From: a virus
Taxonomy: Duplodnaviria; Caudoviricetes
Reading direction: 5' to 3' (one strand)
Length of the DNA: 33,230 bases
Virus record (IMG/VR): IMGVR_UViG_3300033485_000056
Coordinates: 1 to 33,230 of that record
Position numbers and translations under genes: made by a program. This document shows positions 11,490 to 18,169 of the stretch, piece by piece; within the stretch, counting starts at the first letter, position 1; the number at the start of each line of letters is the position of its first letter. A model generated the notes under the pieces. It made no database searches and was not told where the DNA came from. It was given only the letters and a program-made list of their open reading frames with translations.

Positions 11490-11512
11490 TCTAAGCTATC
11501 TTGCTATAAAAT
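11485..11512 (+). promoter_or_regulatory. Putative sigma70 promoter for the sRNA
   Basis: CTAAGC(11491-96)-N10-TAAAAT(11507-12), same spacing as the repeated early promoters. Confidence 0.5.
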
Positions 11513-11517
11513 TACCT

Positions 11518-11625
11518 TGTTCCTATCTAGGACACCTCATCTATTCACCTCCTAAACACCTCAATCGTCCTGCTTCATCTCAGGGCGATACTTTCGACAA
11601 CCTCTTATAAAAGAGCGTCGTTTTT
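11518..11625 (+). ncRNA. Putative trans-acting antisense sRNA (anti-SD/anti-AUG)
   Basis: 5' hairpin TCCT/AGGA; three CACCTC copies (11533, 11546, 11557); 9-bp hairpin 11564-11589; terminator-like end; 11536-11552 complementary to several early-gene start regions. Confidence 0.6.
11595..11625 (+). terminator. Putative intrinsic terminator
   Basis: CGAC..CTCTT/AAGAG..GTCG interrupted stem followed by TTTTT. Confidence 0.5.
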
Positions 11626-11655
11626 ATCTACAATTAAGAAACATAGTTTTATAAT
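11622..11655 (+). promoter_or_regulatory. Putative promoter of antirepressor/replication operon
   Basis: TTTTAT-N4-AATTAAG-N11-TATAAT, a degenerate copy of the repeated early promoter. Confidence 0.65.
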
Positions 11656-11674
11656 GCTTTTACAATCTTTTAAC

Positions 11675-11746
11675 GGGGTACCAAGTCCACGGGAATGTTT
11701 TCCCGTTAAGAGTTTGCTTAACTGCGTGTGATTGACTTGGTACCTC
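11675..11746 (+). ncRNA. C4/P4-CI-like cloverleaf antisense RNA in the antirepressor leader
   Basis: 13-bp closing stem 11675-87/11734-46, bulge TGATT, CACG/CGTG stem, hairpins GGAA/TTCC and GTTAAG/CTTAAC. Confidence 0.6.
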
Positions 11747-11783
11747 TCTCACTCCTCTTGAATAATCATACCGAAAGAATAAA

Positions 11784-12403: not shown

Positions 12404-13237
12404 ATGAGTAAGTCTAAAAAATATTACTGGCTAAAACTAAAAGATGATTTCTTTCATAACCCAAAAATAAAGAAATTGCGTAAAGTTGCAGGAGGTGATA
12501 CATATACCATCATCCTTCAAAAAATAATGCTCTTATCAATAAAAACTGGTGGATTTATTGAGTTTCAACATATCGAAAAAACATTCTCGGAAGAGCTTGC
12601 TCTAATCCTTGATGAAGAGGTTATTAATGTTGAGGTAACTTTATCGTTTATGAACTCAAATGGACTTATGGAGGACTCAAATAGTGAATATTTTATACTT
12701 CCTTTTATCCCTGAATTAATAGGCTCAGAGGGCGACAGTGCCGAAAGAGTACGCAAATTAAGAGAGAATAGAAAGAACATCGAAGCGTTACAATGTAACA
12801 CAGAAGTAACAACACGTAACACAGAGATAGAGAAAAGAGAAAAGAGAGAAGAGATAGAGTTAGATAAAAGAGATATAACGTGCGATACACTCGTTACAGA
12901 TATTATTAAAGAATCTTCTTTTGATACCTTCTGGAAAGCCTACCCTAAAAAAGTAGGTAAAGATGCCGCATTAAAAGCATGGAACAAAAAGAAGCATAAG
13001 CCACACATGGAACTTATCCTCGAAGCAATCGAACGCTACAAGCTATCCAAAACTGTACGTGAAGGATTTACGTGCAATCCTGCAACATGGATTAACGAGG
13101 GAAGATGGTCGGATGAGGTCACACTATCAGACTATGACAAAGCAAAGGCTATACAAACACATACTGGCATGAGTCCAAGTGAAACGCTTGATATACAGCT
13201 ACAACATGCTCAGGAAGAATGGGAGGCTGGAAAATGA
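12404..13237 (+). CDS. Replication initiator (replisome organizer N-terminal domain)
   Basis: KKYYWLKLKDDFF...IKKLRKVAGGDTY; SAERVRKLR; FDTFWKAYPKKVGK; NPATWINEGRW. Confidence 0.85.
   Translation: MSKSKKYYWLKLKDDFFHNPKIKKLRKVAGGDTYTIILQKIMLLSIKTGGFIEFQHIEKTFSEELALILDEEVINVEVTLSFMNSNGLMEDSNSEYFILPFIPELIGSEGDSAERVRKLRENRKNIEALQCNTEVTTRNTEIEKREKREEIELDKRDITCDTLVTDIIKESSFDTFWKAYPKKVGKDAALKAWNKKKHKPHMELILEAIERYKLSKTVREGFTCNPATWINEGRWSDEVTLSDYDKAKAIQTHTGMSPSETLDIQLQHAQEEWEAGK
12787..12870. repeat. Putative iteron origin inside the initiator gene
   Basis: GTTACAATGTAAC palindrome; GTAACA repeats at 12795, 12806, 12816 (GTAACACAGA twice); purine-rich AGAG tract. Confidence 0.55.
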
Positions 13238-13659
13238 AAGATAGAAATTTAAACCATAGTGACTCGTGGGCTACACCGCAATATTTGTATGATGAATTAA
13301 ACGCTGAGTTTAATTTTGACTTTGACCCATGCCCTCTTGAATTAGGAGAAATTACGCCTGAAAATGACGGGCTTTTAAAAGAGTGGGGGAAATCAAACTT
13401 TATAAACCCTCCATACTCACAGAAGCTAAAAGAGGCTTTCGTGGTTAAAGCCATAGAAGAGAGTAAAAAAGGAAAAGTTTGCGTCCTACTTTTGCCAGTA
13501 TCTACATCAACAAAACTTTTTCACGAACATATTTTGCCAAACCAAAAAGAGATCCGATTCTTAAAAGGTCGTGTGAAGTTTGAGGGCATAAATACTTTTG
13601 GGGAAAAAGTTACAACTAAATGCGGTATGCACGATAGCATGATTGTAGTTTTAAAATGA
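13234..13659 (+). CDS. Phage DNA N6-adenine methyltransferase (Dam family)
   Basis: WATP, FDFDPC, FINPPYS, IRFLKGRVKF; GGAGG SD before ATG 13234. Confidence 0.85.
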   Translation: MKDRNLNHSDSWATPQYLYDELNAEFNFDFDPCPLELGEITPENDGLLKEWGKSNFINPPYSQKLKEAFVVKAIEESKKGKVCVLLLPVSTSTKLFHEHILPNQKEIRFLKGRVKFEGINTFGEKVTTKCGMHDSMIVVLK

Positions 13660-14210
13660 AAAACCAACTAATCCAAGACATCAAAAGCAAACTAAAAATA
13701 GTCGGAGGTCACTTCGTAGATGCTGAAATATCAGATTACATCGCAAACATACCTCCCGCAAAGTACAAAGAGTTTTTTAAAGACCTAAGCGGAGATGAGT
13801 TTTCATTTAAGAACGGACTAGATAGGGTCAAGATAGTATCTGAGCGTTACACAAACACGCCTAAAAACGATTTTATCGCAGAAGCTAAGGAAATCGTTAG
13901 CCTTATGCACTCAATCAACAAAACAGCCATTATAGAGTCTCAGGCGAGAGGCATAGGCTATGTTCAATTTATGGCAGGGCTAAAGATTAGAGAAACTTTT
14001 AATCTATCGGATAAACAAGCGCACGTTATTAACGAGATCGGAGGGCGTGAGTACATTATGAAAGTCAATGAAACAGAGCCTAATAGTTTGGAAAGAAAAG
14101 TAGTAGAGCAGTTGGAAAAATATGCACATCGTGATATTAAGCAACTATCAGCAGTGAGAGCCAATAAAGAAGTAATGCAGTTAGCAAACAATATTGTGAA
14201 GAGAGGGTGA
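13656..14210 (+). CDS. Hypothetical protein, possibly helicase loader by position
   Basis: 184-aa ORF with ATGA coupling; function inferred from synteny only. Confidence 0.5.
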   Translation: MKNQLIQDIKSKLKIVGGHFVDAEISDYIANIPPAKYKEFFKDLSGDEFSFKNGLDRVKIVSERYTNTPKNDFIAEAKEIVSLMHSINKTAIIESQARGIGYVQFMAGLKIRETFNLSDKQAHVINEIGGREYIMKVNETEPNSLERKVVEQLEKYAHRDIKQLSAVRANKEVMQLANNIVKRG

Positions 14211-14212
14211 GG

Positions 14213-14845
14213 ATGAAAATTTTAGTAGCTTGTGAAGAAAGCCAGGCAGTAACAACGGAGTTGAGATTATTAGGTCATGAAGCATACTCGTGTGATATTG
14301 AGCCATGCGGAGGAGAGCATCCTGAATGGCACTTACAACAAGATGTTATTCCGTTACTAGAAAAAAAGTGGGATATGATAATTGCATTTCCTCCATGCAC
14401 GTATCTAACTGTTACTGGCAACAGATGGTTTAACGTAGAACGATACGGAGAAAAAGCAATACAACGGCATAAAGATCGCGAGTGGGCTATTAACTTTTTT
14501 ATGACGATAGCTAACTCTAAGTGCAAAAAAATTGCTATTGAAAATCCAGTTGGAATTATGAGCAGTGAATGGAGAAAGCCCGACCAAATCATAAACCCAT
14601 TTCAGTTCGGTGAACCATTCGAGAAAAAAACGTGCTTATGGTTAAAAGGATTGCAAAAGTTAGAAAATACAGAAGTAGTAGAACCGCCAACAAGAACAAA
14701 ATTCGATAGCGGAAAATCAATGCCTACATGGTACGCTGATTGTTGGAAACTTCCTGCAAAAGAACGAGCAAAACAGAGATCAAAAACTTTCACCGGAATC
14801 GCAAAAGCTATGGCTATGCAATGGTGCGGAGAGTGTAGAACATAA
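14213..14845 (+). CDS. DNA cytosine-5 methyltransferase-like protein
   Basis: MKILVACEES, SCDI, AFPPCTYL (catalytic PC), IENP, KKTCLWL, RSKTF.GIA.AMA.QW. Confidence 0.8.
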   Translation: MKILVACEESQAVTTELRLLGHEAYSCDIEPCGGEHPEWHLQQDVIPLLEKKWDMIIAFPPCTYLTVTGNRWFNVERYGEKAIQRHKDREWAINFFMTIANSKCKKIAIENPVGIMSSEWRKPDQIINPFQFGEPFEKKTCLWLKGLQKLENTEVVEPPTRTKFDSGKSMPTWYADCWKLPAKERAKQRSKTFTGIAKAMAMQWCGECRT

Positions 14846-14910: not shown

Positions 14911-15822
14911 ATGAAAGAAATCGAAGTAGAATTAATTGAAGTTGAAACGCTAGACGTTTCCAAAGCAGTTGAGGTAACTCAAAAACCAATCATTGCATAT
15001 AAAATGCTTGAAATAATTAGTAAAAATGTTGGGGATAAAATTCAATCCCTTAATATCGAATCGCTCGAACCTACTGATGATAATTTATCTCTCATTAAAC
15101 GAACACGGGCAGATTTAACAAAAGATTTTAACGATCTTGAAAATCAGCGTAAAATGGTTAAAGAAATCATCATGAAAGACTACAATCTTTTTGAAGATGA
15201 TTACAAAAAGCTTATTTCGTCATTGTTTAAAAATGCAGACGATCAGCTTAAAAATCTTGCATCAACAGTGGACGATAAAATCCTATCGGTAAAAATTGAT
15301 GGTATCAAAGAATACTTTAACGAAGAAAACACGTTTGAGTTTATCAATTTTGACGATTTAGGATTGAAGATTATCAAATCAAAATCTGATAAATCAATCA
15401 AAACTGAAATTGACGAATATCTCGCAAACATCAAAATGAGTATTTCAACAATCGAAACACTCCCAAATAAAGAGCGTGTGCTTGCAAAGTTTCAAATGAG
15501 CCGTGATTTAAATCGTTCAATCTCTGAAACAAATATCGAAATTCAGCGTGAGGAACAAATCAAAGCGCAAAACGAAGAACGTGAACGCCAAGCGGAAGAA
15601 CGTCGATTAATGCTCGAAGAATCACAACGTATTGCAAAGGCACAGTTCCGAGAAGATATTACGCAAAGCCAATTCATTGAAGAGCATCAGCAAGTTCTAA
15701 CACCTCAACTAATTACCGAAGAAGAACCAGTTTTTAAATGCACATTTTCAGTATTAGCAACAAAAGCACAATTAAAACAATGCAAAGAATTTTTTGCACA
15801 AATAGGAGTAAAGTATGAGTAA
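14911..15822 (+). CDS. DUF1351-like coiled-coil protein
   Basis: KRTRADLTK..NDLENQRK pattern, upstream of recombinase; GGAGGTG SD favours ATG 14911. Confidence 0.65.
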   Translation: MKEIEVELIEVETLDVSKAVEVTQKPIIAYKMLEIISKNVGDKIQSLNIESLEPTDDNLSLIKRTRADLTKDFNDLENQRKMVKEIIMKDYNLFEDDYKKLISSLFKNADDQLKNLASTVDDKILSVKIDGIKEYFNEENTFEFINFDDLGLKIIKSKSDKSIKTEIDEYLANIKMSISTIETLPNKERVLAKFQMSRDLNRSISETNIEIQREEQIKAQNEERERQAEERRLMLEESQRIAKAQFREDITQSQFIEEHQQVLTPQLITEEEPVFKCTFSVLATKAQLKQCKEFFAQIGVKYE

Positions 15823-16507
15823 TGAAATCGCAAAAGTTGAGAAATCAACATGGCTATCTAATGAGGAAAAAGTAATTATCCGTAAGCAATTTTTCCCACA
15901 AAATGCTACTGATATGGAAATGAAGTATTGTATGAGTGTTGCTGAAAAATTTAACCTCAACCCTATTTTAAAGCAGATTTTCTTTATTGCTCGAAAAAGT
16001 AAAGGCGATAACGGACAATGGATTGAAAAAATCGAACCTCTTGCAGGACGTGACAGCTTTTTAACATTAGCGCACCGTAGCGGGAAGTTTTCAGGAATTG
16101 AAACAACCACCGAGATTAAACCAACTGCAAAACTTATCAATGGAGAATGGGAACAAAAAAGTGATTTAGTTGCTATGTGTAAAGTATATAGGTCAGATAT
16201 GGAGCGTCCAGTGATTGTTGAGGTTTCATATTCTGAATATGTGCAAAAAACTAATAACGGTGAAATTACAAAGTTTTGGAAAGAAAAGCCGGAAACAATG
16301 TTAAAAAAAGTTGCAGAAAGTCAGGCATTACGCAAAGCGTTTGACATTACCGGACTATATGCAGAGGAAGAGATTAGAGAGGTACAAGTTGATAATGTAC
16401 GATCATCAGTCCAGCAACAACCACAAATTCAGCATGATGCGTTTAATGATGCGGAAGTTGTAGAAATACCTAAAACAGTTACAACAGTTAATCTCAATGA
16501 TATTTAA
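15815..16507 (+). CDS. bet: Single-strand annealing recombinase (Bet/RecT family)
   Basis: LNPILKQIFFI, AHRSGKFSG, WKEKPETMLKKVAESQALRKAF.ITGLYAEEE. Confidence 0.9.
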   Translation: MSNEIAKVEKSTWLSNEEKVIIRKQFFPQNATDMEMKYCMSVAEKFNLNPILKQIFFIARKSKGDNGQWIEKIEPLAGRDSFLTLAHRSGKFSGIETTTEIKPTAKLINGEWEQKSDLVAMCKVYRSDMERPVIVEVSYSEYVQKTNNGEITKFWKEKPETMLKKVAESQALRKAFDITGLYAEEEIREVQVDNVRSSVQQQPQIQHDAFNDAEVVEIPKTVTTVNLNDI

Positions 16508-17571: not shown

Positions 17572-17613
17572 TAAAATACTTTTATACTTAATTAAGCTTA
17601 GTTAGTCTATAAT
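17572..17613 (+). promoter_or_regulatory. Repeated early promoter/operator, copy 2
   Basis: TAAAA-N3-TTTTATACTTAATTAAGCT then TATAAT (17608-13). Confidence 0.8.
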
Positions 17614-17620
17614 TGTTCTA

Positions 17621-18088
17621 CAAGATACGGATCACCTAAATCAATAAAAAGTTTCATCGGCACGAGTAGGTGGAGTGTGCGGTATCTTGCAAGTTATTTG
17701 ATTTACCATCCCAAAGATTACGATAGGGACAAACAAAAATATGGTCGTAAAATAAACCATGTTTAGAGCTTTTGATGCAGGGGTAAAGACGGTGACTAAT
17801 CCGTAAAGCGGTAGAGGTTGAACGCCATTGAGACCATTTTGAATTGGATAGTTGAGATGCTATCCCCCTTGCACAGAGAGCTTTTGCTAGTGATACATAG
17901 TGGCGTAATAAAAGAAACAAGATGGAAGCCTGCAAGTATTTATCAAGATTCTATAAAACACAGACAGTAAAAATTCGTATCCATGCGATTGGTGTCTATA
18001 TCTATGTATCACTACAAAGAGCTTTTAATACAGTCAAGCCATTCAAACAGATGACATTAACTTGGCTGTATTAAGGGTTTAAAGCCCT
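17621..18088 (+). ncRNA. Array of long-stem structured RNA units separated by AGAGCTTTT linkers
   Basis: Closing stems 17621-28/17682-89, 17776-83/17866-73, 17888-900/18002-14 (13 bp perfect), 18025-38/18061-74 (14 bp, one G-U); linkers at 17765, 17877, 18018. Confidence 0.6.
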
Positions 18089-18106
18089 AAAAAACGGAGG
18101 TGAAAG

Positions 18107-18169
18107 ATGAAACAAAAATTACAACAGCTTGAAAATTGGTTCGCTGAAATAGCGGAAAGGATTTTTTGA
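18107..18169 (+). CDS. Small peptide (20 aa, MKQKLQQLENWFAEIAERIF)
   Basis: Strong GGAGGTG SD; TGATG coupling to next gene. Confidence 0.6.
   Translation: MKQKLQQLENWFAEIAERIF

Follow-up and report, generated by a model that had tools for sequence, protein, structure and literature searches.

The window, the whole 33,230-nucleotide stretch of viral DNA analysed here, holds the complete 33.1-kb genome of a freshwater phage, taken as complete because of a 127-nt repeat shared by its ends and the record's classification under direct terminal repeats. Its gene content comprises podovirus-like virion genes, an anti-repressor, a replisome organiser, RecT, NinB, SSB and RusA, with the RecT/Bet-type annealing protein encoded at 15815–16507 on the + strand (Pfam RecT, E 3e-35; PHROG 252). 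Two DNA methyltransferase genes (13219–13659 and 14207–14845) may have an anti-restriction role, and a ~290-nt gap without genes, running from the lysis genes to the anti-repressor (11490–11783), contains inverted repeats. The host is likely Sulfuricurvum, given that most named SSB relatives carry that name and that related cassettes occur in a Sulfuricurvum prophage (L103/L107: cassettes inside an integrated prophage, integrase, then a host gene).

A promoter-like repeat lies at 17583–17613 (+ strand), formed by an AT-rich upstream element and TATAAT at 17608–17613. It is the second of three copies in the window (14854, 17583 and 21678), the other two preceding other gene blocks; an E. coli-type promoter scan makes no call at this copy. 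Transcription would start near 17620. The first-pass annotation had placed an array of structured RNA units directly behind copy 2, and unit 1 does follow immediately. The same element stands before arrays in three relatives (L006, L015 and L018), where, as in the window, the array begins ~7 nt past TATAAT, and AT-rich promoter-like DNA is found 5′ of most other first arrays in relatives.

The array is composed of five folded units on the + strand, three of them closed by helices made from the linker AGAGCTTTT. This near-palindromic linker flanks units as a direct repeat, occurring at 17765–17773, 17877–17885 and 18018–18026 as originally reported; all copies in the window fall within the array (three against 0.42 by chance, a count reached in 1 of 100 shuffles), and the variant AAGGGTTT is present at 18073. 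Adjacent linker helices overlap by two bases and therefore compete, in keeping with the earlier proposal that each linker can pair with either neighbour. That every unit is closed by its own stem proved true in part: the four stems are where they had been placed (17621/17682, 17776/17866, 17888/18002 and 18025/18061), and a fifth unit (~17696–17764) has no linker-helix closure.

Unit 1 (17620–17691) is closed by an 8-bp stem (17621–17628/17682–17689; z −2.7 whole, +0.6 for the interior alone); it is ~95% identical in L006 and L015 and replaced in L018. Unit 2 (17696–17764, z −1.1) consists of two hairpins whose loops could possibly pair (17718–17723 with 17745–17750). It is missing from L006 and near-identical in L015 and L018, and hence without covariation. 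Unit 3 (17768–17881) stacks a 6-bp linker helix, a 2x2 loop and an 8-bp helix (17776–17783/17866–17873) that closes a four-way arrangement; fold and motif scan place in it a hairpin (17789–17804), a k-turn-type hairpin (17810–17835) and a T-loop-like hairpin (17846–17865). Unit 4 (17880–18022) repeats the 6-bp linker helix and 2x2 loop below a 13-bp helix (17888–17900/18002–18014) and a 101-nt interior, which by itself folds at z −1.0 and for which no homologue was found. Unit 5 (18021–18078) is an uninterrupted 18-bp helix capped by a small conserved loop (z −5.8); homologues are present in L006 and L018, and L015 has the unit-5 frame with another interior. An end hairpin (18074–18088), conserved in L006, L015 and L018, overlaps and competes with the base of unit 5, just 5′ of a ribosome-binding site (18096–18100). 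Directly 3′ of this site is a 20-aa ORF (18107–18169), possibly a leader peptide, which overlaps the next start and is kept in L001, L006, L015 and L018.

The array region folds at z −4.25, a value equalled by none of 100 shuffles; among 18 other 300-nt windows of the genome, one came close (z −3.7 vs −4.2). For the window alone, folding leaves the strand unfixed (against 20 shuffles, z is −3.8 on + and −6.4 on −). Across 17 array spans from the window and its relatives, 13 reach z ≤ −3 on the + strand (20 shuffles each) and 16 have a lower fold energy on + than on −. The interiors of units 1, 3 and 4, taken by themselves, fold no better than shuffles.

Cutting all arrays at linker-like motifs gave 32 segments, refined to 30 cassettes after six mis-cut segments were dropped and four re-cut. 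In the 32 segments, a segment's own 5′ and 3′ arms pair at a mean of −20.6 kcal/mol, vs −11.2 for arms drawn from different segments. Half of the cassettes (15 of 30) share one frame, in which two linker halves form a 6-bp helix that is followed by an internal loop (2x2 or 3x3) and an upper helix, mostly of 8–14 bp. The 3′ side of that loop reads CA, CC, CCA or CCC in 14 of these 15. The remaining cassettes are mostly continuous 17–18-bp helices or close variants, two lacking closure in the fold. The stem covariation sought at first pass is there, as two-sided changes in the closing helices: nine in the unit-3 helix (16 cells) and seven in the unit-5 frame (51 cells), with no broken pair in either, a zero that is partly by construction since the helix registers came from our own folds. 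The two commonest stem types differ on both sides at four positions.

Related arrays were recovered by pattern and BLAST searches in 12 other records, namely nine viral or metagenomic contigs (L006, L007, L008, L010, L012, L013, L015, L018 and L113) and three phage-like regions of Sulfuricurvum genomes (L107, L108 and L110). L017 is identical to the window and was not counted as independent; L024, L109 and L111 were discarded, their matches being due to chance or to the promoter only. L112, stem-closed and of unclear phage context, was counted as uncertain: at 1500–1815, in a Sulfuricurvum genome and bordered by convergent host-like genes, it has a linker-flanked unit with a stretch resembling the 5′ half of tRNA-Gly. 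The unrelated viral contig L024 contains a type II hammerhead ribozyme above the gathering score (1378–1456, − strand). The window capsid protein is matched in only one of five array-bearing records, and the arrays are therefore not bound to one virion type.

These records bear out the proposal that the units are modular and exchangeable, with cassettes shuffling between conserved linkers among both relatives and metagenome contigs. The phages that share units 1, 2 or 5 with the window (L006, L015 and L018) differ in whole cassettes. Metagenome contigs depart from the window sequence at or near linkers (17772, 17775, 17881 and 18020), the in-between part of several joints not being seen; linker 1 is an exchange point at which contigs diverge (17772 and 17775) into other cassette types, linker 2 carries a contig joint 17613–17881, and linker 3 carries joints 17614–18020 and 17691–18020. 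One contig of run X1 equals window 17736–18049 without differences, and this run may be the window's source. Exchange also reaches inside the stems. The unit-4 stem alone encloses seven interiors, its seven records carrying different sequences of 41–151 nt (the others being L007, L008, L010, L012, L013 and L015), with short variants in runs X1 and X2. The short interiors of this type in L013 (1439–1520) and in X1 and X2 differ in their hairpin loop, TTAAAT vs TGAAAT, recalling different anticodon loops. The unit-3 interior, in turn, sits in two unrelated stems (that of the window and L113, and that of L110), and another interior is found in different stems in L008/L018 and, more loosely, in L010. 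Sequence comparison accordingly demonstrates the cassette frame, its compensatory changes, exchange of whole cassettes at the linker and exchange of interiors within one stem; on the same footing, closing stems and interiors shuffle independently.

The interior of unit 3 is conserved across three phages (the window and its homologues L113 and L110). In its first hairpin the loop is invariant while the pairs go from AU-CG-GC-GC to AU-AU-UA-GC. In the middle arm, a 3-nt bulge with U as its last base precedes G.A/A.G positions, a sequence pattern found in all three homologues. PMC4382518 gives the standard k-turn as a 3-nt bulge followed by G.A and A.G between two helices. By sequence pattern, unit 3 would therefore carry a k-turn-type motif, the pattern having been written after the motif was seen and its three real hits forming one family. 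We presume a resemblance to P2 of the SAM-I riboswitch, from which the array differs in having no Rfam riboswitch match. The last arm presents a T-loop-like loop on different stems across the homologues. A scan for the T-loop motif counts 19 such hairpins in the 17 spans (including four copies of one homologous end hairpin), whereas 300 shuffles gave 6.4 ± 2.4 and the − strand gave 6.

This strand-specificity of loop motifs (19 vs 6) speaks against treating the units as DNA-level recombination cassettes, selfish hairpin elements or decaying tRNA genes, without RNA function. So do the unpaired loops of unit 3, conserved while the stems change, and the absence of any integrase or transposase from the window. 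A near-palindromic linker repeated in direct orientation, breakpoints that fall on it, good folding of the window on both strands and interiors that are often unstructured all lend that explanation something; we judge it improbable.

A further structured type forms the first unit of four arrays (L010:1650–1716, L007, L012 and L107). It looks pseudoknot-type, with four two-sided changes (statistically weak, being drawn from four rows and attained by 17 of 500 shuffles), and has no Rfam match. Likeness to tRNA is confined to a minority of members. The window contains no tRNA genes, and its three linker-closed units are no closer to 31 host tRNAs than shuffles are (6, 50 and 50 of 60 as good); likeness above shuffles (≤ 2 of 60) is seen in only 4 of 32 segments. 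Among the relatives there is one tRNA-Trp(CCA) predicted by ARAGORN, in L018, which lies within the cassette frame, its CCA placed where other cassettes have the 3′ strand of the loop, and one Rfam tRNA match, in L007 (35.9 bits), with D- and T-arms and without a normal anticodon arm. The window units end in CA, not CCA. Several tRNA-like sequences were seen besides. The L007 phage has a second, isolated Rfam tRNA match (L116 (G360), 46 bits) with a TCC anticodon loop and no ARAGORN call; the reverse strand of the large middle segment of the L006 array (~370 nt) contains a tRNA-like unit whose anticodon-type loop has 6 nt, together with a CCA-ending unit, and a hairpin in that segment we take to resemble a tetraloop receptor. 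The anticodon-like loops seen in units 3 and 4 could be U-turn-type loops that arose by chance.

Such diverse compact folds, the k-turn-type unit 3 and the pseudoknot-type first unit among them, would suit free RNAs acting in trans outside defence, as antisense regulators, ligand aptamers or titrators of housekeeping proteins (k-turn binders, tRNA enzymes or RNases). The searches argue the other way. The window array, used as a BLAST query on 66 Sulfuricurvum genomes, gave three matches and no long antisense match to a gene, and no Rfam aptamer or riboswitch family matched the array RNAs. We regard a non-defence role in trans as unlikely.

The array appears to be uncatalogued. Rfam 15, run on the window in gathering and E-value modes, gave no hit at gathering, the best local hits being sub-threshold chance matches. 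BLAST against cultured phages and plasmids found no real match, and the exact linker-stem pattern is absent from the GTDB genome collection. The unit-3 core pattern, with three mismatches allowed, has one match among 353 family genomes. A unit-3 covariance model found nothing in 151 genomes of the order, a sample without a known positive, and on 19 sources recovered only the three sequences it was trained on and weak matches to the frame. The array is not described in the literature searched. Within PMC10690425, six supplementary files have no match; files 1, 2 and 4 were outside the search, and its candidates may therefore include these RNAs.

Protein coding is the least credible alternative. 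The region had been said to hold no + strand ORF; two 50-aa ORFs do overlap it (17818–17970 and 17922–18074), neither conserved, and a 93-aa ORF runs on the minus strand, whose conservation as a protein would have undone the array reading. The ORFs exist, and beyond that the data oppose them: the 93-aa product has no family, homologous DNA yields only pieces of it, L015 interrupts it by a stop and shifts its frame, and the ORF extends over units that are shuffled separately. We give coding practically no weight.

Two known kinds of small RNA were also compared. CRISPR arrays and repeat-mimic anti-CRISPR RNAs share the plan of a promoter-driven array with constant and variable parts, and Y RNAs combine a terminal stem with tRNA-like parts. 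CRISPR-Cas is present in the host genus, where 10 of 66 genomes have Cas2. The array differs from CRISPR in its 9-nt linker, 53–190-nt folded units, lack of cas genes and unlikeness to host repeats, and its spacing of 112/141/55 is set against the regularly spaced 23–50-nt repeats of CRISPR, so that the first-pass verdict of 'not CRISPR' stands. Seven host repeats match the arrays no better than shuffles, and 93 host spacers yield no real match (best 14–16 nt). As for Y RNAs (YrlA/YrlB), there is no Rfam hit, and Ro60 (TROVE) is found in none of 5 phages and in only 3 of 66 host genomes. It is thus very improbable that the units are CRISPR-repeat mimics or Ro60-bound Y RNAs.

Whether the units work in cis is the more serious question. 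Cis-acting phage leaders include RNase III sites and put-type RNAs, and the main rival to our interpretation is a 5′ leader whose units stabilise, process or antiterminate the downstream early mRNA, their variety being tolerated drift. The arrays do lie behind a promoter and ahead of the first ribosome-binding site, directly upstream of which the end hairpin and unit 5 are in competition, and in L108 the array comes after a cI/cro-like pair. Set against this is L001, a close relative with the upstream gene and promoter as in the window and then ORFs directly. The array is therefore dispensable, and contigs in X1 and X2 likewise go from promoter straight to ORF. A tRNA gene and many unrelated interiors would not be expected of one cis signal, and the tertiary-type motifs of unit 3 persist in three phages. 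A cis-acting leader seems to us doubtful.

The array is real, selected and uncatalogued; its structure and exchange are well supported, and the first-pass view of modular, processed non-coding RNA cassettes is supported in part. We tentatively favour, at somewhat less than even confidence, a reading in which exchangeable, helix-closed non-coding RNA cassettes are made as one precursor, cut by host RNases and deployed as variable decoys for host RNA-binding defence proteins. From the adjacent promoter-like signal the whole array would be transcribed as a single RNA laid out in the manner of a tRNA operon, in which leader and trailer pair at the foot of each unit. This RNA would then be cleaved by RNase P and/or RNase III at the internal loop, where a tRNA has its 5′ start and its CCA end. 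The closing helices of the window units measure 14–21 bp, an RNase III substrate being about two helical turns of duplex, and RNase III is present in five of five host-genus genomes; cleavage by RNase P at the internal loop would fit equally well. Processing into separate small RNAs is likely on this model. Cassettes would be swapped by short-homology recombination in the conserved stems, probably by the phage RecT, for which the conserved 13–20-nt arms are plausible substrates. The released RNAs would act as decoys for host defence proteins, for example tRNA-targeting nucleases. This last step is a reasoned guess, and no defence system was found as a partner; counter-defence does fit an array that is dispensable, quickly shuffled and placed early and that has tRNA-related members.

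The nearest described case is T4 RNAC/RNAD, phage small RNAs of unknown function (PMC3014915, PMC9697503); small RNAs of phage tRNA regions have been without a known role for decades (PMC3014915). They share with the arrays a position beside or in place of tRNA genes, one related array having a tRNA gene. T4 has two fixed genes, whereas here a shared linker helix recurs, most units are not tRNA-like and interiors are swapped within fixed stems. PeSLs of T4-type phages (PMC2839356) resemble the array in that short conserved non-coding stem-loop motifs mark points of module exchange, and the array does lie at exchange points between related phages. Each PeSL, however, has a promoter and SD and shuffles protein genes, and we rejected this identity for an array with one promoter-like element before several non-coding units and one RBS after. 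Phage tRNAs that defeat tRNA-cutting defences (PMC11555353) likewise combine a strong phage promoter with small RNAs variable between strains; these are functional tRNAs replacing cut species, whereas the window units could not decode. At least one effector, according to PMC12851939, reads the acceptor stem, T-arm and CCA tail.

A broader version of the decoy reading, which we put forward as possible and on balance rather unlikely, is that Sulfuricurvum phages carry a recombinable RNA counter-defence library. A few fixed tRNA-slot scaffolds would provide for processing and swapping, and every interior (tRNA mimics, k-turn, T-loop and pseudoknot folds) would sequester its own host immune protein or signal, so that the library would be the RNA equivalent of anti-defence gene islands. 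The locus offers at least two uncatalogued structured RNA families, the k-turn-type RNA of unit 3 and the pseudoknot-type first unit of the relatives. Since one promoter occurs in nature with these cassettes, with other cassettes and with none, the question can be put to the test one cassette at a time. If true, a fixed scaffold bearing interchangeable RNA cargo would give phages a new means of diversifying weapons that are not proteins.
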